Positions 12,796 through 56,256 of a DNA stretch of 64,000 bases are shown here, in pieces; position 1 is the first letter of the stretch; the number at the start of each line of letters is the position of its first letter. The notes beneath the pieces were generated by a model. That model had not been told where the DNA came from and did not search any database. It was given only the letters and a program-made list of their open reading frames with translations. A program made the translations under genes and the position numbers. The stretch is from Stegostoma tigrinum (lineage: Eukaryota), in the NCBI RefSeq assembly GCF_030684315.1, contig NC_081362.1:64708586-64772585 (forward strand), in the 5' to 3' direction.

Positions 12796-13004
12796 GAGAT
12801 AATGGGAACTGCACATGCTGGAGAATCTGAGATAACAGTGTGGTGCTGGATGAACACAGCAGGCAATGCAGCATCTTAGCAGCACAAAAGCTGACATTTC
12901 GGGCCGAGACCCAATGAAGGGTCGAGGCCCAAAATGTCAGCTTTTGTGTTTCTAAGATGCTGCTTGGCCTGCCGTGTTCATCCAGCTCCACGCTTTGTTA
13001 TCTC
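12796..13004. mobile_element. Inverted pair of PLE terminal repeats (family 1), non-coding
   Basis: Two arms matching the 3' end of the PLE at 31980-32101, in opposite orientation, centred ~12913; flanked by ACTTTTCTTCA (12785-12795) and ACCTTTCTTCA (13005-13015). Confidence 0.85.
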
Positions 13005-13234
13005 ACCTTTCTTCAAATACCGTTTCATCAAAATGATGATCATTGAAACACACACTTGGTAGGATATTGAAAATTCTGAAATGGGATTCAAACCCATATC
13101 TATCTTTCACCTCATGAGATAATCTGACAGGAGATTGTTCTGTGAGGTTATTTAGCAAATCATTTTGCATTTGTAAGATACTTTCCTCACTGGAGAGTCA
13201 TGTTGCTCGGGGCAGCAATGTGTTTCAATTGTTG

Positions 13235-13563
13235 GGGGTGGCTCAGTGGTTAACTCTGCAGTCTCACAACAGCGGGGACCGGGTTCAATTCCATCCTCAG
13301 GTGACTATCTGTCTGTGTAGAGTTTGCACATTTTTCTCATATCTACATGGGGTGTCCCTGAGTGCCCTAGTTTCCTCCCACTGCCCAAAGTTGTGCAGGG
13401 TAGGTGGATTGGCCATGCTAAATTGCCAACAGTGTCCAGGGATACATATTCTAGGTGCATTAGCCATGGGAAATGCAGGGTTACAGAGGAGCTCTTTGAA
13501 AGGTCAGTGTGGACTCAATGGCCAAATGATTTGACTCCACACTCTACGGTTTCCATGATTCTG
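13235..13563 (+). mobile_element. HE1-type V-SINE
   Basis: A-box-like GGTGGCTCAGTGGTTA, B-box-like GGGTTCAATTCC, central gtgtagagtttgcacatt...tttcctcccac...ggccatgctaaattgcc domain and a CR1-derived tail. Confidence 0.85.
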
Positions 13564-14417
13564 TTTGCTTTCATGTCATGTTTCTTCTTGGAAGAAATGT
13601 ACTGTTATGATTCTATGAAATCACAAAGGCGACAGGGAGCAAAATCTGGCATTGCAGTTTTCTTGCTGATCTTGGCAAAGTATGCTTGTCCCATTAATGC
13701 CAGCCGTGAGATTAACTTATGGCCAACATATGTTCAGTTCCCCAAATCATTGTAAACCGCGATATGGCTGTGTTTAATTGGATCCACTGATAATTTAATG
13801 GATTTTATTGCTCTTTTCCATGAACTCCAGAATCCAGTTTTTGATATTGTGAACCTTTTCAAGGTTGCAATGATGATGATGGTTTTTTAAAAATGGGGAC
13901 AATGCTGGAGGGCCTGAGGCTGGCTTGGATTGCTATTTTTCGCTTCTCAGAATTTGGGTTAAAAGGCAGCCTAGACTTCTCCACTATACAGTTGTCTCTA
14001 AAATTGTGGTAATTGTCAAAATTGTCCTTGGCTTCCATATTCACCAGTTAATTCTGATCCAACAGAACATGACAAATACCACATGATGGGCAAAAGCAGT
14101 ATCTTTGAGTATGGCGTGGGATCAGCACGTTCTGGCAAATATAACTTTTTTTTAATGTTAGAAGTACAGAGCAGAAGGCATCAGTATTTTTATGTTGTAC
14201 ATGATAGATTCTCTTATTGTGCATTTTACAACTTGGCATTTGGCCTGTACTTAAAAGTAAAGGTATTGTCAGGATCCTTAAAGGAGGAACTATATGTTCA
14301 AACTGCTTAATTGACAAATTTGTGGAATGGCAGGAAATTCTGCGATTCCTAGGCATTTTAAAATCTGTAGAAATTGAAGTCCATTTCACAGGCACTATTT
14401 CTGAGGAAGGGTGTCTT

Positions 14418-14915: not shown

Positions 14916-15290
14916 TTTTGTAGTATAAAATGTACAGTCAAGAAGTGGATATGACTGGTGGCAGTTAATATTTAAAACCGAAATAAAAATGCCACAGTGA
15001 TATTGACAGTGGGAAAATTGCTCAGTTGTGTGTGATAGCATTTCAGAGTATAATAGAAAAGGGTGAAAGAGTAAAGAGAACGCTGCCTCTAGAGAGACAT
15101 GGGCACCACATTGGATACAGTGCTCTATTTCCCCCTCCAAATCCCTAACTGCCCCTCATATTGTTTATGGCTTGGATGGTTTGTATTGTCGATAATGGGC
15201 TTTGTTTGTAAATAACTAATTGACTACAATAGGTGTTTTCCTGATGGTAGTTAATGTTCAAAAAGGAAAAATGACTAAGTAAAAAGTCAG

Positions 15291-15368
15291 CGATAACAAG
15301 GTGTAGAGCTGGATGAACACAACAGGCCAAGCAGCATTTTAGGAGCAGGAAAGCTGATGTTTTGGGTC
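15291..15368 (-). mobile_element. 78-bp solo PLE terminal-repeat fragment
   Basis: Matches the family-1 pLTR; perfect 11-bp TSD TAAAAAGTCAG at 15280-15290 and 15369-15379. Confidence 0.85.
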
Positions 15369-15544
15369 TAAAAAGTCAGGGTGATTTTGGTGCAGAAGTC
15401 GTTCAGTTGTATGTGATAGCACCTCGGGGCATTAAAAAAAAACCTGAGTCGGGCCAGACTCAGTGCCACAATGGGTCAGTTCATTCAGCTGTTAAATGGA
15501 AGTTTGATGTTTCGTCACCATCCAAGGATAAGGACGTGAGGATT

Positions 15545-15725
15545 CCTGTGGTGCAGTGGTTAGATTAGATTAGATTCCCCACAGTGTGGAAACAGGCCCT
15601 TCAGCCCAACAAGTCCACACCGCCCTTTGAAGCATCCCACCCAGACCCATTTTTACCTACTTCTGAACCAGGAGACCTGGGTTCATACCCACCTGTCCCA
15701 GAGGTGTGTAATAACATCTTTGAAC
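15545..15725 (+). mobile_element. Short tRNA-derived SINE interrupted by an antisense HE1/HER1 3' tail (15561-15650)
   Basis: GTGGTGCAGTGGT (A-box) is separated from cctgggttcatacc (B-box) by (TAGAT)3...acagtgtggaaacaggccct...ccagacccat; a related uninterrupted copy lies at ~40150-40240. Confidence 0.65.
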
Positions 15726-19510: not shown

Positions 19511-20938
19511 CAAACGTACCACTGGGAATTAATGGAAATAAGAATGATGATAATATTCTTCGATCGGTGCTGAAACTGGGCCTTGCTCCTGGCTTTGACA
19601 ATCCTACGTGTATTAGCCTCTCATGTATTTTTACATAGAATATTTTCTGTTAGCATCCCTAGAAAATGTTTCGATTGATGCCCCATGTAAAGTCGCCCAC
19701 AACTCTCTAGAAATGTGATGAAATGTGCTGTCATTTACAACATTTGCCTCTCAAGATTATATCTGTGGGAACAACTTTATTTCCTAGTCATGGATTTAGC
19801 ACGTAGATGAAGACCAGTGGTATAGGTCCTCCAACTAATGCCCTTTGATTCAAGTTCTGTTAATACATTTGCCACTTGACAAAGATCCTGACTGTGTTGA
19901 GGTATGAATAGCTAACTGGATTCACCACTTCAGATCATGAAGCCTGCTTGGTTTTGTCATAACAACGCTGCTCTCTGCAGTCTTAATTGCCAAAGGATCT
20001 TTTTTCATTCTGACTGCTTGAATAAACATCTCCACATTCTCTCAAGACAAAAAATGCATCAGCGTCTGGGTGTTAAAGTGTCTTGACTGTATGTGACTTC
20101 TCTAGTGTGGCTCTGCATTGAATCACTATTATAGACTGTGTCCAAATATTTATTCAGTGTAAAGTAAAAAATGGCTGTAATTGATTCCTGCCTTAAGGAG
20201 TGGTGGATCAAAGTGTACTCAAACAAGTAGCCATTGTGGTATGTTGACTAATCATGACAATCCTTTCAGCAAACAGAGATATCAAAGAAAATTGCGCAAA
20301 CCAAAATTGAGACCACTATCATGTGAATTTCCAGAGTTTGTGGAAAGATTGTAGCAAGTATATTTTGAATAGGAGGATTTTAAAAAAAGTTATGGATGAA
20401 AGTTGCTGGAAGGGAAGTTTAAAGTAGTGTCAGGTACATGCTCCTTCAGCAAGAGAAATGATCATGAGGACTGATGTAGAGATAGTAGCCATAGCTGTAT
20501 TCAAGATAATGTGATGATGTATTAGCCATGACTGCTAACTTTTTAAAGTATGTTCAAATTGGGCAACATAGGCTTAGCTTTAGCCATCTCTGCCTGACAG
20601 ATTGATGTGTTGTTGTGTATATCAACAAGTTCAAATAAGTAACACAGTATTTAAACAAATATTTCAGTTCTACATAGTGAATGATGCATTTGAAATTAAC
20701 ATAAACGGATCATTCCTCCTGTTATCTCAGCACAGGCAGCAAGCCTCTGCCTGCCTTGACCCCAATCTCTGTAAATTTCTCTATAAGGCCCTGAGCTTTC
20801 TTTCTGATTTAACCTTTAAAATCTTTCCGTAAAACCTGGTAAGCCTTCCAATTCTCTGGTCCCCAACACCTCATTTTCACCATGGACATCCAGTCCCTAT
20901 AACTTCCAATTTCTGGTCCCCAACACCTCATTTTCACC

Positions 20939-22325
20939 ATGGCTGTCCAGTCCCTATACACCTGTACTCCTCATGCAGATGGCTTAAAGGCCCTCCGCTT
21001 CTTCCTGTCCCGCAGGCCCGACCAGTCCCTCTTCACTGGCACGCTCATCCACCTGGCTGAACTCGTCTGCACCCTCAACAAATTCTCTTTCAATTCCTCC
21101 CACTTCGTACTGACAAAAGGGGTGGCCATGGGTACCCGCATGGGCCCAAGCTATGCCTGCCTCTTTGTAGGCTACGTGGAACAGTCCTTCTTCCGCACCC
21201 ACTCTGGCCTCAAACCCCACCTCTTCCTCCGTTACATTGATGACTGTATCGGTGCTCGAATAATTCATCCACCTCACCAACACTTTCCACCCCAACCTCA
21301 AGTTCACCTGGACCAGCTCCAACACATCCCTCACCTTCCTGGGCCTCTCTGTCTCCATCTCAGGCAACCAACTAGAAACCGATATCCATTTCAAACCCAC
21401 CGACTCCCACAGTTACCTAGAATACACCTCCTCCCACCCACCTTCCTGCAGAAATTCCATCCCCTATTCCCAATTCCTTTGCCTCCATCACATCTGCTCC
21501 CAGGATGAGGCATTCCACTCCCATATATCCCAGATGGCCTTGTTCTTCAAGGACCGCAACATCCCCCCGACAGTGGTCGAGAACGTCCTTGGCTGTGTCT
21601 CCCTCATTTCCCGCAACACATCCCTCACACCCCGTCCCAGCAATAACCATCAAAAGAGAATCCTCCTCGTCCTCACATACCATCCCACCAACCTTCGGGT
21701 ACAACGCATCATCCTCCGACACTTCCGCCATCTACAATTCGACCCCACCACCCAAGACATTTTTCCATCCCCACCCTTGTCTGCCTTCTGGAGAAACCAC
21801 TCTCTCCGTGATTCCCTTGTCCCCTCCACACTCCCCTCCAACGCCACCACAGCTGGCACTTTCCCCTGCAACTGCAGGAAATGCTACACTTGTCCCCACA
21901 CCTCCTCCCTCACCCCCATCCCAGGTCCCAAGATGACTTTCCACATCAAGCAGATGTTCACCTGCACATCTGCCAATATGGTATACTGCATCCGCTGTAC
22001 CCGTTGTAGCCTTCTCTACATTGGGGAAACCAAGCAGAGGCTTGGGGACCCCTTTGCAGAGCACCTACACTCGGTTCGCAACAAACAACTGCACCTCCCA
22101 GTCGTGAACCATTTCAACTCCCCCTCCCATTCCTTAGACGACATGTCCATCCTGGGCCTCCTGCAGTGTCACAACGATGCCACCCATAGGTTGCAGGAAC
22201 AGCAACTCATATTCTGCTTGGGAACCCTGCAGCCCAATGGTATCAATGCAGATTTCACATGCTTCAAAATCTCCCCTCCCCCCACTGCATCCCAAAACCA
22301 GCCCAGCTTGTCCCCGCCTCCCTAA
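20939..22325 (+). pseudogene. PLE reverse transcriptase + GIY-YIG endonuclease, disrupted
   Basis: ORF 20939.. carries the RT to YIDDCIGA. A frameshift and a TAA at ~21256-21263 follow, then the frame is open 21264-22325 (FIHLTNTFHPNLKFTW...SIPYSQFL...YIGET...GTLQPNGIN). Confidence 0.9.
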
Positions 22326-22593
22326 CCTGTTCTTCCTCTCACCTATCGACTCCTCCCACCTCAAGCCGCACTCCCATTTCCTACCTACTAACCTCATCCC
22401 GCCCCCTTGTCCTGTCCGTCCTCCCTGGACTAACCTATCCCCTCCCTACCTCCCCACCTGTACTCACCTCTACAGGCTCCATCCCCGCTCCTTTAACTTG
22501 TCTGTCTCCTCTCCACCTATCTTCTCCTCTATCCATCTTTGATCTGCCTCCCCCTCTCTCCCTATTTATTCCAGAACCCTCTCCCCATCCCCC

Positions 22594-22627
22594 TCTCTGA
22601 TGAAGGGTCGAGGCCCGAAACGTCAGG
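22594..22627 (+). ncRNA. Minimal hammerhead ribozyme motif in the PLE terminal repeat
   Basis: TCT-CTGATGA-A-GGGTCGAGGCCC-GAAAC-GTC-AGG: core boxes CUGANGA and GAAA, GGG/CCC stem II, NUH triplet; predicted cut after 22624. Confidence 0.65.
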
Positions 22628-23599
22628 TTTTGTGCTCCTAAGATACTGCTTGGCCTGCTGTGTTCATCCAGCTCCACACTTCATTATCAAGCTTTCACTT
22701 CTTTTAGTTCTCCCACTGTGTCTCCAAATCTACACTTCTTCAGATTTTTTCTTAGTACATTTCCAAGAGACATTTTACAATGGTAAAGGTGCTAATAGAA
22801 CTGAAGGGGTTGTTGAATCTGATCTCAATCGTCTCTGGATTCAACAGCTGTCTCATTTTCTGCTCAATCTCATTTTTTTACTAATGACTTGAGCAGTTAA
22901 TTATATCATTAGTGTATATACCATAATATAGATCTACCTACATTTCTAAAGTGATTTAATATATAAGTTATTTCTAACTGACTGTAATAGATATAGGATA
23001 AATTGTACTTTAATTGACAATTTAGATATTTGGGCAGTAATTTTAAACTAACCTGCTAAGCTGTAGGATTCGAGCCGGCACCTGTTTTACTCATCTTTCA
23101 AATGCATCTTCCACTTAAGCCAAACCCAAATTCTACCAGTGGCAAAGGTTGCGTTATGATGAAAGTCTCGAAAAACTTGAAATCTTTAACTTTGAAAGAA
23201 GATACTGGAGAGGCCACCTTGTAAAAGTATACAGGTTAATACAGCGCACCACTTCAAGGTAAACCACAATACGACTACACAGAGGTACAGATGAAAGTTG
23301 CCGAAAGGAAGTTTCAAGTACATATTCCTTAAGCAAGAGAATTGATCATGGAGACTTTTGTAGAAAGTAACGATAGCAATATTCAAAAGTCAATGACTTG
23401 ACATATTAACCATGACTATTACCTTTAAAAGAATGTTCAAACTGGGCAACACAGCCTTTGCTTTCGCCATCTCTGTCTTTGACAGATTGAACGCCAGAAT
23501 GGAGAAAGGCTTCAGATGAATTATGGGGCTTTTAGTGTCCGTAAGAGACCTCAGTGCTGGAGGTAGCTTATTGGCATGAATAGAGAATTGGTTCATGAG

Positions 23600-24790
23600 C
23601 AGGATAAAGAGTTTTGTTTTAGGTTGGTGGACCATGATTGGTGGGGACTGAAGGATGGAAAGGAATGTATTGTAGCCAAATTGGCAGATGATGTAAAAAT
23701 AGGTGGAAGGGTAGTTTGTGAAATTAATCAAACAATTTGCAGAGAGATAGTGATTGGTTAAGTAAATGGCCAAAAATTTGTCAAATCAAATACAAAGTGG
23801 GAAAATGTGAGGGGAGAACAAAATAACAGTAACAAAAACAGAAGTTGCTGGAAACGCTCAACAGATCTGGTAGCATCTGTGAAGAGAAATTCAAAGTTAA
23901 CATTTTGGGTCTGGTGACCATTCCTCACTGGACCTGAAACATTAATTCTGATTTTCTCTTCACAAATGTCACCAGATCTGTTGAGCTTTTGCAGGAACTT
24001 CTGTTTTTGTTCCTGATTTGTAGTATTTGCAGTTCTTTTGGTGGTTATTTAGAACAAAATAACAATATTATTTACATGGAAAAAAGCTATAGAAAGCTGC
24101 AAAATAAAAGGACTTTGGGTGTGCTTGTACAAGAAACACAGAAAGCAAGCACTTTGTTCCAGCAGATAATCAGGACGGCTTAATGGAATGTTAGCCCTTA
24201 GTTCAGAAAGTTTGGAGAATAAGATTAGGAAAATTTTCTACAGATGTACAAAGAGCTGGTGATCTGGAGTATTGTGAACAGTTCAGGCCCCCTATTCAAG
24301 GAAAGGTAGCATTTCATTGGAGGACCTCAGAGAAGTTTCTCTAAGATGATCCCAGGTGTGGAGAGATTGTCTTATGAGCAAAGGTTAAACAAGTAGGACT
24401 CTATTCACTGCAGTTTAGAAGAATGAGAGGTGATGTGTTTGGGAAACATATCAGCCATAATTGAATGGTGGAGCAGACCCAATAGACTGAATGGTCTAAT
24501 TCTGTTCCTTTATCTTATACTCTTATGATCTCACTGAAACATCTATGACCCTTAAGGGCTTTAACAAGGGTAAATTCTTGGAGGATTTTTCCCCTCATGG
24601 GAGAGTCTAGGACCAGAGGCATAGTGTCAGAATAAAGGGCACCAAATTAAGAGTGACATGAGGGAGAATTTCTTCTCTCAGTGTTGAGAGTCTTTGAAAC
24701 TATTTGCCAGAGAGCTCTGGGTGCAGAGTCTGTGCGTATTTTTAGGGCTGAGATAGGTAGATTCTTGTCAACAAGGTAATCAAGATTTAC
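23600..24790 (+). mobile_element. Degenerate CR1-like LINE (RT through 3' end) hosting a nested pLTR insertion
   Basis: ORF 23576..23761 contains CIVAKLADDVKIGG (CR1 FADD motif); downstream ggactttgggtgtgcttgtaca, ctggagtattgtgaacag and a CR1 3' UTR. Confidence 0.8.
23829..24050. mobile_element. Inverted pair of PLE terminal repeats (family 2)
   Basis: Arms aacaaaaacagaagttgctg... and ...cttctgtttttgtt are reverse complements centred ~23925; perfect 14-bp TSD AGAACAAAATAACA at 23815-23828 and 24051-24064. Confidence 0.85.
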
Positions 24791-24799
24791 GGGGACTTT

Positions 24800-24920
24800 T
24801 TGTCATTGGACTCCAAATGTTCACTCTGCTTTCTTTCTACAGGTACTGCCAGGCCTGTTGAGTTTCTCACCAATTTCTGTTTATGTTTCAGATCTCCATC
24901 ATCTGCAACTTTTTGCTTCA
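24800..24920 (+). mobile_element. Solo PLE terminal repeat, family 2, degenerate
   Basis: gtcattggactccaaatgttcactctgc...gccaggcctgttgagtttctc...catctgcaactttttgc matches the other family-2 copies. Confidence 0.6.
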
Positions 24921-26138
24921 ATTTACTGTTTAAATTTACCTCATTAGACATTGGTAGTACTGCACAACATAATGTAAGGTATTCTCAAAGTGAAGACAGG
25001 ATTTTGTCTCCACAAGGACTGCATGGTGGTTACTTCAACTGATTTTGTCATGCAGGGATACATCAGAACAAGATATGGTCAAATATATTTTTCCTTCAAT
25101 TTGTTTCCTTCACCACCTGTTGCAGACCCTTCAATGTTCTTTAGGACTCAACTGGCTTGGTTTGTAGTGGTGCAGCTGAGGCACTCTTGGTGGTGGACTT
25201 TGAGATCCCCCCCCCCCCCAGGATACATTCTGTGCCCTTACTACACTCAGTGCTTCCACTAAATGGTGTACAATGACAAAGGAAGCTAATGCATAGCTAC
25301 AATGTTTCTGGGAAGGCAATCTGTCAATAATTGTATCACAAGAGCTGAAGATCATCATGGCACAGCACTGGAATCTTGTAAGCTACCACTAATTGAATAA
25401 GCCCAACAAGTCAACTCGTTTCCGTAGATGTATCAAGTCAGTCTTAGACCTTACTTTCAAGGGGAAATATGTTAATTAATTTCTCTCTGGAAAGGAGGCA
25501 AGAGGGTGACAGGACATAGAATGATTTTAGGTTGGCAGAGATACGTGAGTTTTAGATGATGCCAATACATGATCCACAACATTCTGCATATTAGCAACCT
25601 TTTATTGTCATCGGGTCTGGATGTCCTGCCATGTTAAAACAGGGGAGGCTTTATCAAACCTATCCCATGCAATAACCCACCCACTTTTTCAATGGATGTG
25701 AGTATTGCACAGCATTGTCATGCTAATAGATGGAGTTTTATTTCTCTGAAGTAACAATTCCCATTTCATTAAAGACCAGTCTGGGTATACTGCAAGGAGA
25801 TCATATGCAGCATTCCTGATAATCTTCTACAAAACAAAGTTGTACTTAGAGTTGACGTTTAATTGTCCTAACTATTAATCCTAGCATCCTTTTCCTTTTA
25901 CATATATAATGATTGTTATATTCCAAGTCTGTGATTTTGGTGATCACATTGAAATATATATGATCCTGGGGATAAAATAAGATAGATGCTTAAAAGATGT
26001 TTCATCTTGTGGATGGAACCAGAATTAGGGAACTCAGAGATTGAAATTATTATTTTCCTCATGGAGCACTTGAGTCTAGGGAACTCTTCTCCAGGGGTAG
26101 CGGAGATAGAATTGTGTAGAATTGAAATCATAACCATT

Positions 26139-30960: not shown

Positions 30961-31033
30961 TGAAATATTCTAATTTGCCTGTGAGTGCACCTTCAATTCT
31001 AACCCAAGAAGTTAAAAGTCATCCAGGACAAAC

Positions 31034-32101: not shown

Positions 32102-32159
32102 ATCCAGGACAAACAGCTGTTTTTGGCAAACCATCTACCATTTTAACAATTCACTTTCT

Positions 32160-41739: not shown

Positions 41740-44105
41740 CCATCATGTAAACCATTGATGCAAATTGTGAAAAGCTGAGAGTTCAGCATTGTTCCCTACA
41801 GGACTCCAATTGTCACATCCTGCCAATCAGAAAAACTCATTTTAAACCCACTCTGTTTCTCTCAGCCACCCAATCTTCTACCTGTGCCAATATGTTCCCC
41901 TATACCAAGTGCTTCTAGTTTGTGCAATAGCCTGTTTTGAGGGACTTTGTCAAATGCTTTCTGGAAATTCAAGTACAGTACATCTCCAGGCTCCCCTTTA
42001 TTAGACTGTATATTACTCCTTTAAAGAACTTCAATAAATTAAGTAGAAATAATTTCCCATTCATAAAACCATGTTGAATCATCTGGTTGCCCTGAGGTTG
42101 TCTGAATGCCAAGCTATAAATTCCTTGCTAATAGATTCTAATAACTTCCCATGATGGACATCAAGCCACCTGGCTAATAGTTTGCTGTTGGCTGTTTCAC
42201 TTCCTTCTTGAATACAGGTGTTATATTTATTATAGATAACAACGTTTTGAGCTGGATGAACACAGCAGGCCAAGCAACATCTTAGGAGCAGGAAAACTGA
42301 TGTTTCAGGCCTAGACCCTTCATCAGAAATGGGGGAGGGGAAGGGGTGTTCTGAAATAAATAGGGAGAGAGGGGGAGGTGGATCGAAGATGGATAGAGGA
42401 GTTGCAGTGGGAGAGAGATCCCCTGAGGTTTGTCCAGAGGGAGGAGGGTAACTTCTTCAGGGTAGGCATCCTTAGAAGAGGCTTCGCAGTGGGGTTAAAA
42501 TTATTTCAGAGATAGTAGGAACTGCAGATGCTGGAGAATCTGAGATAACAAGGTGTAGAGCTGGATGAACACAGCAGGCCAAGCAGCATCTTAGGCCTCC
42601 TCCATTTCTGATGAATTGTCTTGGCCTGAAACGTCAGCTTTCCTGCTCCTAAGATGCTGCTTGGCCTGCTGTGTTCATCCAGCTCTACACCTGGTTATCT
42701 CGGATTCTCCAGCACCTGCAGTTCCTACTGTCTCTATTATATTTATTACTTTTGAATCTGATAGTACCTTTTTTCGAATCTGGCAAATATTGGGAAATGA
42801 ACAACAAAACATTTGCGACCTCGTTAGACAATTCTTTTGAGAGCTTAGTATGAAACTCATCAGGTCTCAATGACTTGTATACTTCAGTTCCATCATTTTG
42901 CTCAATATTGCTTCCCTAGTGATTAAAATTTCACTAAGTTCTGCTCTATTTTCCACCTCTTGGTCTATAGCACCTTTTTTTTAATATCCTCTGTAGTGAA
43001 GACAGAAATCTGCTATTTCCTTATTATCTACTATTAACTCTCCATTCTCACCCACTAGAGGAACAAGACTCACTTTGTTTACTCTTTTCCTTTTTAAACA
43101 CCTGTGACATGCTTGTTATCCATTTTTAGCTAGCTTCCTCTCAAACTCTGATCTTTTTTTCCCAATTAATCATGGAGTTATTCTCTGTTGTTCTTTATTT
43201 TCTATCTAATCATCTCACCTGTAACTCACCTTTGTGTCATCAAATGCTTTTTTGTCCCCACCTGAAGTCTGCCTTTTAAAACTTGTTTAGTCAACCACAA
43301 ATAGTGGGTGTCCTGCTAAGATTTTTCTTTGCCCTAAGAATATATTTGGGAATGATGAGATATCCCCTGAAAGGTTTTCTGCTGCTTCTCTATTCATCAA
43401 TCGCCAGCCTAATATCCCAGATCACTTCTTCTGGCTCAACTTTTATGCATTTACTGAAGTTTATAATACTAGCTTAAGACACACACTTGTCCTTTTCAAA
43501 GTAAATGTAAAATTCAATGGTTTTGTGGTTGCTGCTTCCTGGGGGCCTTTACTTTGAGATTATTAATTATTCCTACACAATACGCATATCAAGTCGAGTA
43601 CAAATTGTTCTCTGGTTGTGCTGATTGGACTACTCTAAGAAACTAAATCTCTTCCCCTTCAATCTCAAAAACATTGTATGAACACCTCATGCAGGCTATC
43701 ATTGCCAATCCAAGTTTTCCTGTGTATATGTAAATTAAAAACACCATGATTATTGCTGTCCTTTTATCACGTGTCCAATATTCTTCTATTATATTTCACC
43801 CCTCATTGTGGTAACTGTAGGCCACTCCCATTGATGACTTATTTCCCTTGCTATTCCTTATTCAAGCTGATTCTGCATCCTGTTCTCCTGAACAAAGATA
43901 ATTTCTAACCATTGCACCAATGCTATCCTTGAGTAACAGTTCAATCTCTTCACTTTTATCTAATTTCCTATGTTTCTTGAACATCATATATCCTTCAATA
44001 CTCAGTATTCAATTCATATCTTACAGCCCATCTCTTGTAATGGCTATTAGAATATATTTATTTACTTAAATATGCACAAACACTTGTTAACTTCATTACA
44101 AATGC
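41740..44105 (-). mobile_element. Long, old CR1-like LINE (RT and endonuclease region), interrupted at 42233-42736
   Basis: Reverse complement of gggactttgtcaaatgctttctggaaattcaagtacagtacatc encodes DVLYLNFQKAFDKVP (CR1 RT motif); degenerate colinear sequence continues toward ~44100. Confidence 0.75.
42233..42736. mobile_element. Internally deleted mini-PLE (minus strand, 42233-42595) plus an inverted pLTR (42596-42736)
   Basis: Minus strand runs pLTR end, then ORF start MPTLKKLPSSLWTNLRGSLSHCN, then jumps to 3' UTR and pLTR; perfect 12-bp TSD TTATATTTATTA at 42221-42232 and 42737-42748. Confidence 0.88.
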
Positions 44106-44106
44106 A

Positions 44107-44196
44107 ATGGGTTGGGTCTGGGCGGGATGCTGCAATGGGCGGAGTGGACTTGTTGGGCCGAAGAGCCTGTTTCCACACTGTAGGGAATCTAATCTA
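44107..44196 (+). mobile_element. HE1/HER1 3' tail fragment
   Basis: gggtctgggcgggatgct...gtggacttgttgggccgaagagcctgtttccacactgtagggaatctaatct. Confidence 0.75.
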
Positions 44197-45030: not shown

Positions 45031-45100
45031 TTCTACTCCATCTACAATACCTTTTACCAAGCTGTTGAATCTGCATCACAGAAACATTGTCCCAATATTT

Positions 45101-45316
45101 GATAACAAAGTGTGAAGCTGGATGAACACAGCAGGCCAAGCAGCATCTCAGGAGCACAAAAGCTGATGTTTTGGGCCTAGACCCCACTCTCTGATGAAGG
45201 GTCTAGGCCGAAACGTCAGCTTTTGTGCTCCTGAGATGCTGCTTGGCCTGCTGTGTTCATCCAGCTCCAAACTTTGTTATCTTGGATTCTCCAGCATCTG
45301 CAGTTCCCATTATCAC
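45101..45316. mobile_element. Inverted pair of PLE terminal repeats (family 1) with a ~35-nt tail
   Basis: Arms 45101-45184 and 45199-45281 are near-perfect reverse complements; hammerhead motif at 45191-45217; perfect 13-bp TSD TGTCCCAATATTT at 45088-45100 and 45317-45329. Confidence 0.92.
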
Positions 45317-46391
45317 TGTCCCAATATTTAACGTTGTGCTTTCCTGAATAAACTATTTCCACATGGAAAACATCCAAATACCAAAGTGAGCCATTCCCCT
45401 TTAATGTGTGGCTTCCTCAAAATGTGGAGCATCATTGTTGACTCAATGTGTCTCTTTGGAAACCTATTCATAATACTAGCTACTTCAAAGAAGATTTGCT
45501 TGATTCTTGTGCAGTTAGTCTGTAACCATAGGCTTCAGGGGTCACATAGAAGAAAAACTACTTAAAATACATGTTTCGCACATCTTAAAGTGTTTATCCT
45601 CATTAGACTCAGCTAATGACTGCCTTGAGCAAGTTTTGAAGACAAATAACATGGACAACACAAAAATCATGATGGGATAGCTAACTGGGATGCTAACACG
45701 ATCAACTGAGACAGAATGTGTTGCTGTACATCCTCTTAAAGGTCTGCAAGATTAACACTTTTTCTTTTTGCACAATGACTATCCAAAAACTAGATTGCCA
45801 TTGAAGAGATAGTAGAGTGCCCCAAACACAAACAATAGTAGCAGAGATCCTGAAAGACTGCATGTAGAATCTCATCTGAGTTGGTAAGTCATTTCAGACT
45901 GTCTCTCATTGACAACTGAAGTGACTTTCGTCAAATAATGTGTAGTTATTCCTTAATGGTGCGTAGTCCTTCAATATCATCTGTAAAATTTGTCCCTAGG
46001 TAGTTGTAAAATGATTGAAACTGCATCATGGGTGTCTTAATCCAATTATCAATCATAATGATTGCAAAAAAAATCTTTGAAGCTCAAGGCCTTAACTCCT
46101 ATTCAAAACATTCTACAGGCAAATTACGTTTGACCTTAGGAACAAATTGGCCTCACTATATTGCCCTACTGTAGCCAGGGTCTTCATGCTGGTCTGTAGA
46201 TTTTATTGACCACACTGCTCAGCTGCAGCGGGTGGATTCTTTCATACTTGTGCCCAAAACTTTCTTGCTGGTTGACATGCACTCAAAACACTGCGATAAA
46301 TGTAATTGCACTAATATCAAATTTTAATAGCAGATCCTATGAATTCTTAATCCTTGGATTCTGAAAAAGCTTCTGCATTGACTATCCAAGT

Positions 46392-46557: not shown

Positions 46558-46659
46558 TTAGTGTTGCAATGGCTCACTTTTCTTGACCACTTGCATTGAA
46601 ATCAGCATTATGCATCTTGCACTTCAATTGCCAGGAAAACTCAGGCCCTGTTTCATTTA

Positions 46660-47000
46660 GAGATAATGGGAACTGCAGATGCTGGAGAATTCCAAGATAA
46701 TAAAATGTGAGGCTGGATGAACACAGCAGGCCAAGCAGCATCTCAGGAGCACAAAAGCTCCGGAGGGAGGAGGGTAACTTCTTCAGGTTAGGCATCCCTG
46801 GAAGAGGCTTCGCAGTGAGGTTAAAATAGTATCAGAGATAATGGGAACTGCAGATGCTGGAGAATTCCAAGATAATAAAATGTGAGGCTGGATGAACACA
46901 GCAGGCCAAGCAGCATCTCAGGAATAAAATGTGAGGCTGGATGTTGTGCTCCTGAGATGCTGCTTGGCCTGCTGTGTTCATCCAGCCTCACATTTTATTA
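46660..47000. mobile_element. Composite mini-PLE of four joined pLTR/ORF-start segments
   Basis: Minus 46660-46759 (pLTR 3' part), minus 46759-46923 (pLTR into ORF start MPNLKKLPSSLR), minus 46924-46943, plus 46944-47000; perfect 14-bp TSD CCCTGTTTCATTTA at 46646-46659 and 47001-47014. Confidence 0.92.
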
Positions 47001-49239
47001 CCCTGTTTCATTTAAATACTGAAACTATGTTCCACAGAAATTTTCCATGTAGGTTATTGTGTTTGACTTGTTTTTGAGAGTGAATTAAGAAACTCCTTAT
47101 TCTTACTTATATTGGCTGAATGCAGGTGGGCAATAAATAACATTTAAATTACTAATATCAAATTCCATAAATAATAAAGCATATTACAATGAAGTTACAG
47201 GGTTATTGTTCAGAAACATGAAGATAACATGTAAAGCAATAGAAGTACAAGAAAGTTGATTCCAAAGGAGCTGACAATATTTGCTTCAAGAATGCTGACA
47301 TTAGTAACTTTATGATTAAAAATATAACATAAAAACTGGTATCGGTTAATTTATTTCCCTGCTTGTGCCAGACACTATGTAGTCATTCAAACAAAACCTC
47401 TTTCATGTTGCAATGCAGCAACGAAGAGATCTTTCCTTAAAATAATTTAAAAGATGCATTTCTAAGGCATAGAGGTGCCAGTGACCTGTGTGCATCAGGC
47501 TGCTGACGATGAAAGGTGAGTAAACTCCAGGCACTGAACAATCTGGGTGGGCAGCAATGAAAATTCTTACAAGATAAGAAGAATAGCTTCATGCATTCAC
47601 CATTAGCAGATCATAGTGGAGTACTATTTCCACCCTCCATTAAAAGTAAAGAAAAAGGAAGCAGTCCCCAGGTTAAAGAGCAGGAAAGTGAATCGCCTGA
47701 AGTGACATAAACATGTGACATTTTAAAATATCAGTTTAGTGTCAAGGCCTACCTGAAAATATCCAGGCCAGAATGCCTGAGGTTAAAAGAAAAGATAATC
47801 AAATTCTACCAAGGGGAGGAAATTCCGGTAAATCATTCACTTAATGAGATCAGTGTGGAGTGGAAAAAATTGTTGGACATTGACAGAGTCAATATTAGTA
47901 CTTTGTTATCTTAACTTAAACTTTATTTTTGTGTCTGTGTTTAAGGCCAGACGCCAGTGAGCTTTGTACTGTATATTTTCATGACCAGCTACCAGTTTTC
48001 CCCAGTGAACTGATCCAAATAAACGTGCAGGTTTTCATCGCTTAAGAAACAAAATATCTTGAACACTGCCCTATAGCCATTAAAACAAAGGCCATTGCTC
48101 ATATGCAAGTATATCCAGCAGAACCAGGGTACAGCGTATCAAATGTCGGTGACATTTACTTTCTTTGACCATTCTCTAGTATTAAAATATTTAATCAATG
48201 ACTAGACTGTCATGTACTTCATCATTTGAGCAAGGCATCGTGTTCAAAAGGAATAATCCAATCCAGTTGGCATTGTTGGTGTTCATTTGTATAGTTGCAT
48301 TGGTTCTGCATGAATCAATGTTTTCATAAGCATTTCATTACATAGTAATGTCTTGTAGCTTAACTCCAGGGATGTAAAATAAAACTAAAGCAACGATTGG
48401 GAAACCTCCCTGAATATCGACTACTTCTTGGATCTGAACTCTGGATTATGAACAGGCTCTTTGATTCCGTATGTAAGTAAATCAAAAGCAATGTTGATGA
48501 CAAATTATGTAAAATTCTTGAGATTATATATTGGTTCCGTGTCAATGCAATACAGACAAGCATCCTGGGAAATTGAAATATTATATATTGTATGCACAAT
48601 GCTGTAATTCTGTGACATATTCTGACCTTATTATGTTTTCCTTGAGTACTTTAATGATTCAAAGTCCACATACAGGCTATTTCAAGGACAGATCCTGAAA
48701 GAACAAATTCTGGTTTAGAACAAGTGTACTTCAGTTATTTTTACTGGAATCGTGCTAATACGAATGGAAATAGAAGGATAGGGTTGTACATTTGACAATG
48801 CTTCCCTAGCCCCTTCTGCTTTGGAACAGACAGCATTAATGTGACAACAGATGTTTTCATTTGATAATGGCATGCAATCAAGATGTGAATTCAAGGCAAC
48901 AGGTTCTGGAGAAGTGGCAAAATGATGTGGCTATGTTCTTAAAACACAGAACTTCCTGAAGAAGATTGCAAAATTTTAATTGATTAAAAGGAGATTTGAA
49001 CATTTAAATTATCTCACAGACATTAGCCTGTATTTTATGTTTAGACTTCATCCACTTTTAGCTGGTTGATGTTGAGTTAGGTGGGGCATGATCATTTAAG
49101 TGCAGATTCATTCTAAATGGTGGGAATTGGATCTCATCTAAAACAAGTCATATCAAAACACACTTCATTCTCCATGTAAACACATCTAAATAATCATTTA
49201 TGCAATACATAAAACTCAAGTATATTTTAGCTGGTAAAT

Positions 49240-49345: not shown

Positions 49346-49555
49346 ATGAAACACCTAGTGTAGAAGTGGAATTTAGTGTGAAGGTGACAATAAACAGAGA
49401 GGTTACAATAGTGGACAACATTTCCAAAAGCCAATGTGAAGGTTCAGTTGATATGTTTACCCATTAATAACTTTTGTCAAGGCTGCAGGAACTGGCATTT
49501 GAGCCCTTTGCATATTATAACATAACTATTCATTGCACAGTGCTATTAATAAACA

Positions 49556-49653
49556 AGTACAGAAATCGCTGGGAAAACTCAGCAACTCTGGCAGCATCTG
49601 TGGAGAAGAAAGCAGATTTGATATTTTGGGTCCAGTGACCCTTCTTCAGTGGG
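49556..49653 (-). mobile_element. Solo PLE terminal repeat, family 2
   Basis: Reverse complement CTGAAGA-A-GGGTCACTGGACCC-AAAAT-ATC (decayed hammerhead); possible 8-bp TSD AATAAACA at 49548-49555 and 49654-49661. Confidence 0.7.
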
Positions 49654-50061
49654 AATAAACATGGTAAGGAAAGAGCACATAAATTGAAAAATAGGAGCAG
49701 TATACTATAAAACCCATGTGGTAGATGGCCATAAAATATCACTCAAACAACCTGGGTCTGGCTCCACAGGTTTTTTATTTCTTCTGGATATGTTGGTTTG
49801 AGAAATGTCATTTAGAAATCCATTGGTGTCAATAATGATGTTGTGGCAAATATAATCAAAAGGTAACTATAACACAATGCCTGAAAGAACAAAACAGTCT
49901 GGAATTGGCTTGAAATATATTATAGCACAACCTATTATAAACACTTTTTGTTTGAAAAATCAGTCACTAGAAATCCTGGACCTGATGCTGCAATTCCTGG
50001 GAATTGACTAGACTTGTCACCCAGCAGGAGCACTGATTAAAAACGAACACAAAACCATCAT

Positions 50062-50243
50062 AAGATAACAAAGTGTGAAGCTGGATGAACACAGCAGGCT
50101 AAGCAGCATCTCAGGACCACAAAAGCTGACGTTTCGGGCTGAGACCCTTCATCAGAGAGGGCTGCTTGGCCTGCTGTGCTCATCCAGCTTCACACTTTGT
50201 TATCTTGGATTCTCCAGCATCTGCAGTTTCCATTATCTCTGAT
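50062..50243. mobile_element. Inverted pair of PLE terminal repeats (family 1)
   Basis: Minus arm 50062-50159 with hammerhead motif (50128-50155), plus arm 50161-50243; 14-bp TSD with 2 mismatches, CACAAAACCATCAT (50048-50061) and CACAGAATCATCAT (50244-50257). Confidence 0.88.
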
Positions 50244-51307
50244 CACAGAATCATCATGTTGCTTTTTCACTCATTTCCTGCTTCAGACCAAGCTAGAAAC
50301 TTGAGCAGACCAAATGTCCTGAAAGCAGGGCAAAACTGGCTTCTGTTCTATTGCCACCCAGTTCTACTGATTGTTTAGCAAGAGATTTCTCAATTCTAAT
50401 TCATTTAGCAACATTGTAGATTCTGATGCACATGTTAATTGTCTAAATTTTGCATCCTTCCTTGAAAAGCTTTGGTCCTGATCAATATTTTGTAATAATA
50501 TAAAATGCCTGGTATCGAGATATTGAATTCATGACAACAGCAGCATCAATATAATGGGATGTAGTGGTTGATCAGAATGCTATTTTCAGCTGTCCACCTT
50601 AATTCGGCCAGTTGTCAGACGAACATTCAGTCCAATTGAACCCATGCCCAACACTACTAATTTATAAGTATGGTCACAGATACTTCTGCTGCAGGATTAG
50701 GGATGCTGGCCACACGGTGAGGGTGAAAATTATTTTATTATTCCAAAGTTTGCATTAAAGCAAATGTGCATCTGGACATGGTAAATCATTCATCAGCCTC
50801 CCAGTTTATCCATTTGATTTGCCCTCAAATGTTTATCGGTAGAAAGACCTGTCAAGAAGCAGCTGCCTAAACATGACTCATGTACCATCAGAGCATTCTG
50901 AATTCTTTTCATAAATGTGCCAAAGTCAGCAGATTAATCTCAACTATTGAAAAAAGTTGCTCCCCTTTAGTGGTGAAGCATCGTTGCTGATAGAAGGAAT
51001 AATTTAACTCCGAACACTGGGGAGAAATTTTACTCGCAGGAGCGAATGGGTTTGGGAGTGGGAAGGGGTTAAAAAAAATTGAACTCAAGACAATGTTGGG
51101 AAGTGCACTCTGACCTTCCATCTTCCCCATTTATCTGTGGCACGTGAGACTGCATGCAAGCGACCCTTTTGGGAGAAATTGGATGTTCATTACAATATCC
51201 TAACAGCTTGTAAAACAACATTATTGTGAGTTTTAACTGTGATTGCAAGGTATTTGTAGGCTTCTTGGTACTTGTCAGTGAAAGGAAGGTGAGAACACAA
51301 CAATTTT

Positions 51308-51600: not shown

Positions 51601-51649
51601 GAGGAAAACAAAAGTCATAAGAAGCAGAACTCACAAGTGTTTTCTTTCC

Positions 51650-51898
51650 AAATAAAAGCAAAATACTGTGGATGCTGGAAATCTGAAACAAATATAGAAT
51701 ATGCTGGAGAAACTCAGCAGATCTGGCAGCACTTGTGGAAACAGAAGTGTTATTATTTTGAATACACTCTGGCTCTTTCTCAGAATCTTCAGAAGACCCT
51801 TCTGAAGAAGTGCTATCAGACTCGCAATGTTAACCTTGTTTCTGTCTCCTCAGATGCTGCCAGACTCATTGAATTTCTCTAGCATGTTCTGTGTTTGC
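51650..51898. mobile_element. Older inverted pair of PLE terminal repeats (family 2)
   Basis: atgctggagaaactcagcagatctggcagca versus gatgctgccagactcattgaatttctctagcat; decayed core TT-CTGAAGA...GCAAT-GTT-AA at ~51800-51835. Confidence 0.7.
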
Positions 51899-52019
51899 TT
51901 TCTTCCTTAATTATATGTAAATCTTTGAAGAATCCTCTTTAATCTGTTAGCTTGGACCTCAAATGTTGATGTCAGCAGTGTAGGAGCAGCAGCAACCTTA
52001 TCCTCACAGAAGAAGGGAT

Positions 52020-52760: not shown

Positions 52761-53974
52761 GATAAATCTGAAATCACTCTTCAATGCACAAACACACACC
52801 CAATCAAAGTCTACAGTACTAAAATCTGCACAGCATTACACAGCAATGAGAAATTAATCTTCAGAAGCTCAAGGCAAAATACATAGTGGCTGTTTGGTGG
52901 AGGAGGTGAAAGAGGACGGAAACGATGCGGCAAATATGCGAGCAGTAATGTAAATTGCTGTCAAGAATGCCATCATAATTGTGAAATTCAGTTAGAGTAC
53001 CCAGCCGACAGACAGATATTAAGCCCAATTTCCCAACGCCTTCTTTTAATACAAAGCAGTCATACAATTAGCCAAGTAACACTTTCATATCAACTCAATT
53101 CTCAATGTTAAATCATCACAATTTAAAAAAGCCATTCACCTGGTTTCAGCCAAAATTGGCCACAGGAAAATATTGCAAGAATGCAACATTTATGAAACTT
53201 AAACAGGAAACAGAAACTGAACAATCCAACACAGAGTAACATACCCATTTACATACACATGTTCAATTTCTAAGCTACTCTTCCTTCTCTGGGCAGCTCT
53301 ACATGGTGAACTCCCATTAATATTAAACGTGGAATCAGAATTGTCAGATCGTTCTGGGTCAATGCCTTTTAGGTTTTAAAGATTTGAAGGCCTTGTAAAC
53401 GCTTTTTCCAGCAGTTCCTTTGAGATATTGGGTGGCAATTGTAATATTGACTGAAATGGAAATATTGCAAGCCAATTCCCTGCTTCCATATCCCTTTCAC
53501 CATCAACCCTCTCATGGTACATTCATTTTTCTCCGTTAGCAAGAAGCCAGAAAGCACTTATGGCAGAGCTTAGGGACAATGAATGGTTAGCAGTCCGATT
53601 TAAAATGGAATAGTTTGTGTGAAAACCATTTGTTAAAGCGAGCATAAATTTTTTGACTGCTGTGTTTGATGCTTCATCTAGGCAGTTGCTCGTTCAATAA
53701 TGTTATGAATGTAGGTCTTTACAAGACAACAAAACTTTTACAATCTCTCCCTTCTCTCTTGTGGTCTGGTTGTTATGGACAAAAAAGTCTAATGAAAATG
53801 AATCATACCTAGATAGAGAAAATAAGGTAGCTGCTTTTTGGAGACAGGCAGTGAGACATTGAGAGACACGAACAGAATAACTACTGATGCATGAAGAACC
53901 AGCAGCTAAAACGCAAAGAACAAAATGGAGAATCTTTGAGTTAATGACTGAACAGAACACTTGTAAAAATTGGG

Positions 53975-55349
53975 GATAATAAAGTGTGAAGCTGGATGAA
54001 CACAGCAGGCCAAGCAGCATCTCAGGAGCACAAAAGCTGACGTTTCGGGCCTAGACCCTTCATCAGAGAGGGGAATGGGGAGAGGGTTCTGAAATAAATA
54101 GGGAGAGAGGGGGAGGCGGACCGAAGATGGAGAGAAAAGAAGATAGGTGGAGAGGACAGTAGAGGTGGGGAGGTAGGGAGGGGACAGGTCAGTCCAGGGA
54201 AGACGGACAGGTCAAGGTGGTGGGATGAGGTTAGTAGGTAGGAAATGGAGGTGCGGCTTGGGGTGGGAGGAAGGGATGGTGAGAGGAAGAACAGGTTAGG
54301 GAGGCAGAGACAGGCTGGGCTGGTTTTGGGATGCAGTGGGTGGAGGGGACGAGCTGGGATGGTTTTGGGATGTGGTGGGGGAAGGGGAGATTTTGAAGCT
54401 TGTGAAGTCCACATTGATACCATTGGGCTGCAGGGTTCCCAAGCGGAATATGAGTTGCTGTTCCTGCAACCTTCGGGTGGCATCTCTGTGGCACTGCAGG
54501 AGGCCCATGATGGACACGTCATCTAAAGAATGGGAGGGGGAGTTGAAATGGTTTGCGACTGGGAGGTGCAGTTGTTTATTGCGAACCAAGCGGAGGTGTT
54601 CTGCAAAGCGGTCCCCAAGCTTCCGCTTGGTTTCCCCAATGTAGAGGAAGCCACACCGGGTACAGTGGATACAGTATACCACATTGGCAGATGTGCAGGT
54701 GAACCTCTGCTTAATATGGAAAGTTATCTTGGGGCCTGGGATGGGGGTGTGGGAGGAGGTGTGGGGGCAAGTGTAGCACTTCCTGCGGTTGCAGGGGAAG
54801 GTGCCGCTGCTGCTGCCACCCACCCCGCTCCTCCCACTGCCCACGGAACCCCGCCCATGGCTGACGCCGACGGAACCACACCCACAGCCGACAACCTCAT
54901 CGCTCCGCCCACAACCTCCACAGCCAGCAACCCCAGAGACAGGCACACTGAGCCCTACCGAATCTTCACCATCCCCCCAGACTTCCCACTGACTGAGGAC
55001 GAATGGTCAGTCCTAAGCAAGGGGCTCACCTTTGCCCCCCTCCACCCACACATCAACGAATACCAGTCACGTTTGGACATAGAGCAGTTTTTCCACCGCC
55101 TTCGCCTCCACGCTCACTTCTCTAACCGGGAGCCTAACCCTCCCTCCACTGACCCCTTCACCTGCTTCCACTATAAGTCCTCCTCCTGGACACCACCCCC
55201 AGGCCTCCTACCCTCCCTTGACCTCCTCATCTCCAACTGCTGTCAACCTTTGGGTGGCATCATTGTGGCACTGCAGGAGGCCCATGATGGACATGTTGTC
55301 TGAGGAATGGGAGGGGGGGGGTTGAAATGGTTTGCGACTGGGAGGTGCA
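53975..55349. mobile_element. Rearranged PLE (copy D): minus 3' portion, plus N-terminal portion, minus endonuclease fragment
   Basis: 53975-54805(-) is linker, GIY-YIG, UTR and pLTR; 54806-55244(+) encodes RIFTIPPDFPLTEDEWSVLSKGLTFAP...DIEQFFHRLRLHAHF (conserved PLE N-terminal motif); 55244-55349(-) repeats 54467-54570. Confidence 0.92.
54036..54069 (-). ncRNA. Minimal hammerhead ribozyme motif in the PLE terminal repeat
   Basis: Reverse complement TCT-CTGATGA-A-GGGTCTAGGCCC-GAAAC-GTC-AGC, identical to 31970-32003. Confidence 0.65.
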
Positions 55350-56118
55350 TGTCAGCCTCTGGGCATCTACAAAGTGTCCTTTTCTGCAGATATTAATTGT
55401 GACATTGACAGAGAACCATCTCTGGTTATTCAGCGTCTCTGTCATGCTCTGTGTTCTCATTACCCACAAGGAAAGAAATGACCTATGAAAGAGAAAAGTG
55501 GGATGGATTAACTGTATGGAATATTGTCATTTGTCAAGGGTGACTATGAAGTGCGACATGGTATTAAGATGATAATGGCTATTAGTTATGGAGTGGCATT
55601 GGGGGATGTGAGGAAATGCATTAAAGGAGGGACACATCTACAAGAAAGCTTAGTGTGAGGAGTGATGTGCAGGTGAAGGCTTGAGATGTGTTTGGGGTGA
55701 TGTTTGTATCAGGAGGGATCAGCGTATTTGCCTTTTCTGCCCTGATTGCGTGTTAAAACCACCTTCAGATTGAATCCACAAATTCTGTGCCACATTCCTC
55801 ACTTACTGATCAACCAGCCATTTCATCTTTTCATTTTCATTAGCATGCTTCCTAGTCTTGTCTGAACACAGCAATGAGGCATCACAAAGGTGAAATGCAG
55901 ACTAGAACATTGGGAATTCTTTCTGATATTTTCTTCTGTCATTAAAGCATCTGCTTAATCCCTAAACTCTCACCTTTACAGTGTCCTGTTAAGTGCTGGA
56001 GTCAAACTCGACTTGTGGAAGTTATTATCAGTCTCCACAGCCTCATTGCTGAGGGGAACCAGAAGGCAGATGCAAATTCAGTGCCAAATGTACAAAGCTA
56101 CCAATGTTTACACACTGC

Positions 56119-56256
56119 TAACAAAGTGTGGAGCTGGAGGAATGCAGCAGGCCAGGCAGCATCAGAGGAACAGGAAAGCTGATGTTTCAGGTTGGGACCC
56201 TTCTTCAGCTCCACACTTGTTATCTCTGACTCCAGCATCTGCAGTTCTTGCCATCT
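56119..56256. mobile_element. Diverged, asymmetric inverted pLTR insertion
   Basis: taacaaagtgtggagctg ... cagctccacacttgttat inverted arms; minus-strand CTGAAGA-A-GGGTCCCAACCT-GAAAC-ATC; degenerate TSD CAATGTTTACAC (56102-56113) and CAATATTTGCAC (56257-56268). Confidence 0.75.

Follow-up and report, generated by a model that had tools for sequence, protein, structure and literature searches.

We analysed a window of 64 kb from the genome of Stegostoma tigrinum (NC_081362.1 64,708,586-64,772,585), to which all counts and densities below refer. It holds two families of a Penelope-like element (PLE), including eight short palindromic copies. A profile search for the pseudo-long terminal repeat (pLTR) of the element found 26 arms at 16 loci, comprising the 8 palindromes and 8 non-inverted copies (12526, 15291, 20845, 24803, 31034, 34475, 49556 and 53975); with parts of open reading frames (ORFs) included, PLE sequence makes up 7533 bp, or 11.8% of the window. 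Weak profile matches at 29871 and 63472 scored near the level of shuffled controls and were left out of the census. All eight palindromes are among the 14 inverted pairs detected within 1 kb of each other. A preliminary description of this DNA had listed eight palindromic insertions as simple inverted terminal repeats: all eight lie where it placed them, with lengths of 138-504 bp, but it missed the eight non-inverted copies, and the palindromes at 42233 and 46660 are not simple, each carrying an extra partial-tandem leg. Six palindromes, including the divergent, family-1-like 56119, belong to family 1; family 2 (2 palindromes and 3 solo pLTRs) is related but older and is laid out in the same way. 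Judged by their sequence, the palindromes are almost certainly extremely 5′-truncated pLTR copies of a Neptune/Nematis-type PLE, joined head to head, and with equal confidence we regard each as a one-off, dead-on-arrival insertion made by an autonomous element of that type.

Positions within the element are counted from the first base after the hammerhead GUH (+1), which is window position 32001 in the reference copy, 31034; there the hammerhead core occupies 31973-32000 and the cut falls after 32000. In all eight palindromes the arms are joined 5′ to 5′ with their 3′ ends outward, so both insertion boundaries are 3′ ends of the element. The palindromes are laid out as follows, with strand and element positions in parentheses and target-site duplications (TSDs) at the end of each line.

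12785..13015, family-1 palindrome 12796: long arm 12796-12912 (minus, +99 to -20), 1-nt filler, short arm 12914-13004 (plus, -26 to +66); TSD 12785-12795 / 13005-13015, 11 bp with 1 mismatch.
23815..24064, family-2 palindrome 23829: short arm 23829-23927 (minus, to -29), long arm 23925-24050 (plus, from -19), 3-nt microhomology at the centre; TSD 14 bp, perfect.
42221..42748, complex family-1 palindrome 42233: short-start leg 42233-42401 (minus, +65 to about -100), second leg 42402-42595 (minus, about +206 to +13, including a putative ORF N-terminus), long arm 42596-42736 (plus, -38 to +100); TSD 12 bp, perfect.
45088..45329, family-1 palindrome 45101: short arm 45101-45184 (minus, +64 to -20), long arm 45183-45316 (plus, -36 to +99), 2-3-nt microhomology at the centre; TSD 13 bp, perfect.
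46646..47014, family-1 palindrome 46660, the youngest, with identical arms: long leg 46660-46759 (minus, +99 to +1, ending at the hammerhead cut), second leg after a jump 46760-46923 (minus, about +174 to +12, with a putative N-terminal coding piece), templated insert 46924-46943 (about 20 nt), short arm 46944-47000 (plus, +6 to +62); TSD 14 bp, perfect.
50048..50257, family-1 palindrome 50062: short arm 50062-50161 (minus, +66 to -34), long arm 50161-50243 (plus, +21 to +103), 1-nt microhomology; TSD 14 bp with 2 mismatches.
51637..51902, family-2 palindrome 51650: long arm 51650-51785 (minus, to -32), 14-nt partly templated filler, short arm 51800 to about 51901 (plus, from -32); probable TSD of 11-12 bp, overlapping the short end.
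56102..56268, divergent family-1-like palindrome 56119 with a CUGAAGA core: short arm 56119-56208 (minus, +62 to -28), long arm 56206-56256 (plus, about +44 to +98), 3-nt microhomology; weak TSD.

The non-inverted copies share these end types and supply the coding sequence by which the element can be recognised. A TSD was looked for and not found at the 20845, 34475, 53975 and 24803 copies.

15280..15379, minus strand, family-1 solo pLTR 15291: short end, 5′ end at -13/-15, perfect 11-bp TSD.
20845..22688, plus strand, 5′-truncated family-1 copy: broken reverse transcriptase (RT)-to-GIY-YIG coding sequence, short end.
31021..32114, plus strand, family-1 copy 31034: GIY-YIG region, long end, perfect 13-bp TSD.
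34475..35224, plus strand, family-1 copy: C-terminal endonuclease region, long end.
53975..55349, minus strand, family-1 copy: short end, endonuclease end reaching -802, then an internal inversion with an N-terminal ORF piece in opposite orientation (54807-55243), then another endonuclease piece (55244-55349).
12526..12660, minus strand, family-2 solo pLTR: long end, 5′ end at about -32, weak TSD only.
24803..24924, plus strand, family-2 solo pLTR: long end, 5′ end at -19.
49548..49661, minus strand, family-2 solo pLTR 49556: short end, 5′ end at about -30, 8-bp TSD candidate.

Four longer family-1 copies (20845, 31034, 34475 and 53975) hold broken coding sequence for an RT and a GIY-YIG endonuclease. 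They match the Pfam families RVT_1 (E=0.009) and GIY-YIG (E about 1e-3), both more weakly than the curated cut-offs. Of 2167 candidates in a protein search (tblastn), 48 proved to be relatives, for the most part ORFs of 620-1000 aa that contain an RT; the nearest one with a name, from Chiloscyllium punctatum, is 58-76% identical over the aligned pieces, and identity to full-length RT+GIY-YIG relatives is 41-76%. A C-x4-C-x2-C motif lies in the linker separating RT from endonuclease (EN) in three copies, and the endonuclease has C-x2-C between its YIG motifs and histidines downstream (the CCHH feature). In the account of PLE clades given by Craig 2021 (PMC8557442), a zinc-finger-like CX2-5CxxC motif in the RT-EN linker marks Neptune and Nematis and is missing in Penelope and Poseidon; by this criterion of linker sequence the shark element falls in Neptune/Nematis, as either of the two, and not in Penelope or Poseidon. 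In the sense of the element, the order is ORF, pyrimidine tract, minimal hammerhead, short end, tail and long end, and the canonical features of EN+ PLEs are present: an RT followed by a C-terminal GIY-YIG domain, a minimal type I hammerhead, and a tail with inverted 5′-truncated copies and TSDs. The hammerhead anatomy (core, extra base, stem II, GAAAC-GUH) matches the pattern in 10 of 11 copies examined, some bases having decayed, and in family 1 no more than 2-3 base pairs of helix I are contiguous. Rfam at its gathering threshold gave no match in the 64 kb, so the hammerhead call rests on motif anatomy; a single pLTR folds with no excess stability (z=+0.71), ARAGORN predicted no genes in the window, and a PDB sequence search with a full-length relative gave no match. 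The palindromes are non-coding, except for the pieces in 42233 and 46660, whose identity as the N-terminus is putative because a second homologue search (1 match among 153 candidates) did not cover +135..+206.

Measured against a null of 2994 random flank pairs, the TSDs are perfect in four palindromes (14, 12, 13 and 14 bp; p about 3e-4), imperfect in three (12796, 50062 and 51650; p about 0.005) and weak in 56119 (p=0.06), so that an initial count of seven recognisable TSDs was fair. For 50062 automated scoring gave 17 bp with 3 mismatches rather than the 14-bp core listed above. In family 1 the short ends lie at +62..+66 and the long ends at +98..+103, separated by the tail of about 35 nt that had first drawn attention, and the family-2 palindromes likewise have one short and one long end. 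Two TTATC-like motifs occur at +64 and +97; the end points, once thought to share this motif, fall within a few bases of the two motifs but not exactly on them.

On balance we favour an origin from a break staggered by 11-14 nt, whose two ends each prime a cDNA, at different members of a pair of fixed start sites, the two products then being joined by microhomology. In this scheme the GIY-YIG endonuclease would cut AT-rich DNA by one nick in each strand, offset by 11-14 nt, so that two 3′ overhangs remain, a spacing and polarity deduced from the TSD length. Each 3′ end would prime reverse transcription at an internal site of the PLE RNA, at +62..66 for one and +98..103 for the other, the primer being complementary over 0-3 nt at either start. 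As a rule both syntheses would pass the hammerhead site, left uncleaved, and end at -13..-38, in the 5′ half of the ribozyme fold, a position observed directly; they would be halted there either by a block in the RNA structure or because the RNA has its 5′ end there. The two cDNA 3′ ends would then be joined head to head through 0-3 nt of microhomology or short templated filler, and the gaps filled; the junctions themselves are observed and carry such microhomology or templated filler, which is about 20 nt long in 46660 and 14 nt long in 51650, and the repair pathway behind them would be of a kind that leaves such marks. Templated fillers are linked to polymerase-theta-type joining. Priming by one end only would yield a non-inverted solo pLTR or a longer 5′-truncated copy, and the hairpin would be a by-product that decays neutrally. 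A related element, Poseidon of a lizard, is described as starting reverse transcription at two internal sites that bound the tail, with both strands cleaved and extended and a dimer predicted (Frangieh 2024, PMC11167929).

Several lines of evidence bear on this origin. First, every palindrome pairs one short with one long end (8/8), whereas the ends of the non-inverted copies divide into four short and four long; if ends were independent, such pairing would have p=0.0039 under a 50:50 null, and it is from this asymmetry that we deduce coupling of the two start sites.

Second, in four of the eight it is the short arm, not the tailed one, that extends further in the 5′ direction: 12796 (inner ends at -26 and -20, respectively), 23829 (-29 and -19), 50062 (-34 and +21) and 56119 (-28 and +44). 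In these, neither arm contains the other, and two templated syntheses are needed. A simple fold-back, in which the tailed arm contains the other, thus fails in 4/8 and holds in 3/8, 42233 not being simple, and the centre predicted by self-priming at stem II (antisense to -20, then sense from -8) was found in none of the eight palindromes.

Third, 20 of the 24 first cDNA legs run upstream across the hammerhead cut, 15 of the 24 stop within -38..-13 of it, and only one ends at the cut (the 46759/46760 junction, +1). The presence of 15 of the 20 short legs in one 26-nt window has p<=2.2e-4 against four memoryless drop-off nulls. Stop position does not differ between short-start and long-start legs (p=0.50), with p=0.075 for a difference in length, and all four short non-inverted solo pLTRs stop in the same zone. 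The inversion centres had been placed in or near the hammerhead, and there they are, clustered at its 5′ half and not at its cleavage site.

Fourth, the palindromes arose repeatedly and independently, as had been suggested from their differing centres. Those centres, no two of which are alike, are insufficient for the claim, since palindrome centres can be deleted later; it is carried instead by a permutation test of subfamily membership over 16 shared-polymorphic non-CpG columns in the six family-1 palindromes, where sister arms differ in 10/72 diagnostic comparisons, with 0.386 as the mean of the permutations (p=1/720). Different palindromes also match different non-inverted copies: 46660 matches 31034/34475, without any difference from 31034 over +21..+62; the nearest copy is 53975 for both 45101 and 50062, and 15291 for 42233.

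A number of points weigh against a two-ended origin. The sample is eight palindromes from one window, and the 50:50 null itself rests on eight copies; no full-length PLE copy was found in the window. The comparison of stop position with leg length is not significant alone (length p=0.075). Arm concordance cannot tell one RNA from two, and it is imperfect: the two arms of 45101 disagree at one diagnostic site, and those of the old 12796 are not mutual nearest neighbours, the sister ranking 4th-5th of 12 by raw distance. Three palindromes (45101, 46660 and 51650) fit a fold-back as they stand, and a fold-back palindrome that later lost its central part would likewise have arms of which neither contains the other. 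Finally, Poseidon belongs to a different clade, and for it the published account of the start site gives no strand difference and, as far as that account goes, no coupling (Frangieh 2024, PMC11167929). A further step, which we take only tentatively, would make the tail asymmetry of PLEs an obligate rule: an asymmetric, probably dimeric, RT-endonuclease complex would cut at a spacing of 11-14 nt and direct the two DNA ends to different start sites, one to the short and one to the long, as a programmed form of twin priming, and the hammerhead fold would act as a stop for reverse transcription or a boundary of the RNA and not as a processing cut.

The alternative that survives best, though we think it unlikely, is single priming followed by fold-back self-priming on the cDNA or an antisense template, with synthesis ending at the short site and a later asymmetric deletion of the centre. 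It explains the single tail and the concordance of the arms directly, and the three palindromes that fit it as they stand need no deletion. The palindromes at inverted PLE junctions were read as self-priming in the discussion of such junctions by Arkhipova 2013 (PMC3846280). The four palindromes with non-containing arms, however, would all need a secondary deletion confined to the inner end of the tailed arm, and no copy retains a stem-II fold-back centre. Long palindrome centres are unstable, which counts for a fold-back; yet 46660, with its identical arms, already has a non-palindromic centre and a templated insert, and the non-inverted solo pLTRs, which have no hairpin, stop in the same zone.

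A second alternative, that the templates were short hammerhead-released RNAs, linear or re-ligated into circles as in retrozymes, is improbable. The preliminary description had favoured short, possibly cleaved RNAs, a view at odds with the crossing of the cut in 20/24 legs, the single leg that ends there and the short helix I; linear cleaved fragments are excluded as the usual template. Minimal hammerheads are also described as cleaving poorly in vitro (Cervera 2014, PMC4209133), and in the lizard experiments ribozyme cleavage was dispensable for insertion in vitro, catalytic mutants inserting normally, while no RNA-seq reads reported there end at the cut (Frangieh 2024, PMC11167929). A re-ligated circle would nonetheless let the RT cross the cut, and cleavage, circularisation and more-than-unit copying have been proposed (Cervera 2014, PMC4209133). 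The case for such a template is made by 46660, in which the first leg ends at +1 (with a 1-nt ambiguity) and synthesis continues from about +174, and in which both tandem legs share a private 1-nt insertion seen in neither 31034 nor 34475, as expected if an RNA of +1..+174 were read round twice. A shared source locus would also explain the private variant. In a minority of events, 46660 among them, the template may have been an RNA of 174 nt, cleaved or circular, that was gone through twice, such an RNA being a retrozyme precursor. Retrozymes proper consist of at least two direct tandem units with complete hammerheads; the legs of 42233 and 46660 are partial, and no two complete cores stand in tandem.

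Far less credible is the amplification, as a unit, of one or a few palindromic, non-autonomous masters resembling miniature inverted-repeat transposable elements (MITEs). The copies are short, numerous, bounded by TSDs and similar to terminal inverted repeats, but all eight centres differ, lengths range from 138 to 504 bp, and neither terminus is an inverted copy of the other, their ends differing by the 35-nt tail; the matching terminal inverted repeats and uniform size and structure of MITEs are absent. At least four family-1 subfamily types plus family 2 are represented, matching separate non-inverted copies, and no transposase occurs among 24 window translations sent to Pfam. Within the window a single MITE-like master is therefore largely refuted.

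Equally remote is selection for the hairpins as sources of double-stranded RNA (dsRNA), small RNAs or cruciforms, for although the folds are very stable, and Porath 2017 describes massive A-to-I editing of Penelope in a lizard and, in a frog, strong targeting by ADAR of palindromic repeats that fold on themselves, arm-to-arm differences of 0/57 to 12/86 columns are consistent with neutral ageing, a crude scan identified no host exon, and editing would be a consequence and not a function. The hairpin noted earlier at 45101, with claimed arms of about 83 bp, does have arms of about 84 nt and a very stable fold (-161.8 kcal/mol, z=-21), and the longest uninterrupted helices across the eight palindromes are 16-59 bp. 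We found no host transcript, no evidence that the hairpins have a function and no sign of selection on arm pairing across the eight; their potential to form dsRNA or cruciforms, as computed from the folds, is a thermodynamic consequence of their shape, and by analogy A-to-I editing is plausible if copies are transcribed. The crude splice scan gave 13 candidates, and Pfam, applied to 19 translations, gave one sub-threshold match, with no gene identified, a result that does not mean that the window lacks one; the top-scoring exon-like candidate (5188-5349, plus strand) has no Pfam match.

Some further features of the PLE copies deserve mention. A long pyrimidine tract is followed, at about -51, by a conserved AG (31940-31950, with counterparts in the other long copies) that resembles a 3′ splice site, and the Penelope of D. 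virilis is described as having an intron that ends at its ribozyme (Cervera and De la Pena 2014, PMC4209133). A splice site was considered as the cause of the stop zone and rejected, the nearest family-1 AG lying at about -51 and not at -38. Past the tail, an ATG at 42395-42470 and at 46760-46800 (both minus strand) opens a short frame and may mark where the ORF begins. Because a stop codon in frame is present just upstream, at the long end, the tail, in contrast to that of the lizard element, may not be coding here. The probable TSD of 51650 (51637-51648 / 51891-51902) resembles the short end of the element itself, and the target may therefore have annealed to the RNA over several bases. The longest PLE copy has a tandem duplication of about 57 nt at its 5′ end (20845-20958).

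Other repeats are interspersed with the PLE copies. One occurs five times (13238-13490, 26245-26494, 30637-30966, 40802-41094 and 51308-51594), with an A-box-like motif in 2/5 and a B-box in 1/5, which suggests a tRNA-derived short interspersed element (SINE), possibly the one named HE1. The 31034 PLE copy follows just after one of these copies. Another is enclosed by a 32-nt inverted pair (26210-26241 / 26887-26918; 97% complementary, 645 nt apart) that is possibly the remnant of a DNA transposon. Self-comparison revealed further low-copy repeats (10348-10754, 14266-14397, 16101-16275, 20395-20605, 23290-23490, 15565-15650 and 44109-44196), probably old pieces of SINEs or long interspersed elements.

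Published descriptions count among the hallmarks of PLEs the inversion of pLTRs, TSDs and a tail of 30-40 nt on one of the arms (PMC3846280; PMC8557442; PMC2377424). The structure itself is thus already known, the eight palindromes are a further case of it and, the structure being textbook for PLE specialists, the finding as such is not surprising. Compared with the inverted-pLTR EN+ PLEs in those descriptions, the shark copies usually have arms of 57-138 nt with no ORF between them; their TSDs are 11-14 bp, against 8-10 bp in the rotifer examples given, and the asymmetry termed "optional" there is present in 8/8 here. Like Poseidon of Anolis carolinensis as characterised in PMC11167929, the shark element has two tail-bounding starts of reverse transcription downstream of the hammerhead, AT-rich targets and an uncleaved RNA template; unlike it, it belongs to a different clade and has the CX4CxxC linker, and inverted copies are not a subject of that account as far as it goes. 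The PLE remnants described in Schistosoma (PMC4209133) share a minimal hammerhead with an extra base before stem II, a palindromic ACGT and a short helix I, as well as the pairing of minimal hammerheads on opposite strands; there such pairs lie 100-700 bp apart, and thousands of dispersed copies are mentioned for some vertebrates; as far as that account goes, it names no sharks and analyses neither the ends, the TSDs nor the pairing of tails. As in the twin priming of L1 (Ostertag and Kazazian 2001, as described in PMC2246262), both sides of the break would prime cDNA and so produce an inversion, but the fixed start sites 35 nt apart, the lack of poly(A) and the widely overlapping arms that form a palindrome set these copies apart, and the element is not an L1. 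Metazoan non-LTR retrozymes, as presented in PMC7229834 and bioRxiv 10.64898/2026.07.22.740005, are likewise small, non-coding and PLE-related, with a type I hammerhead and, when present, large TSDs; they are direct tandem monomers with complete ribozymes, whereas the palindromes are inverted truncation products.

A literature search, in which subscription papers and repeat databases were thinly covered so that a prior description is possible, found no account of these shark elements or of fixed-site twin priming in PLEs. Palindromic repeats named "Chompy" are known from crocodilians; no link between these and PLEs was found in the literature consulted.

The value of the palindromes lies in their use as a test-bed. 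How tandem and inverted PLE structures form is named as unresolved in the part of Craig 2021 (PMC8557442) that deals with them, and the strict pairing of short and long ends, together with the stop zone, makes this mechanistic question directly testable, because in these minimal copies, bounded by TSDs, a span of about 200 bp preserves the two priming points, the two stop points and the joint. An annotation can easily mistake such copies for MITEs, and any that are transcribed would be self-contained ADAR substrates. At a density of 8 palindromes in 64 kb, counting them across the genome could tell two-ended priming from fold-back and show whether the ribozyme cut is ever used. If the reading of the asymmetry as obligate is true, shark genomes would be a very large natural data set on the formation of PLE inverted repeats.

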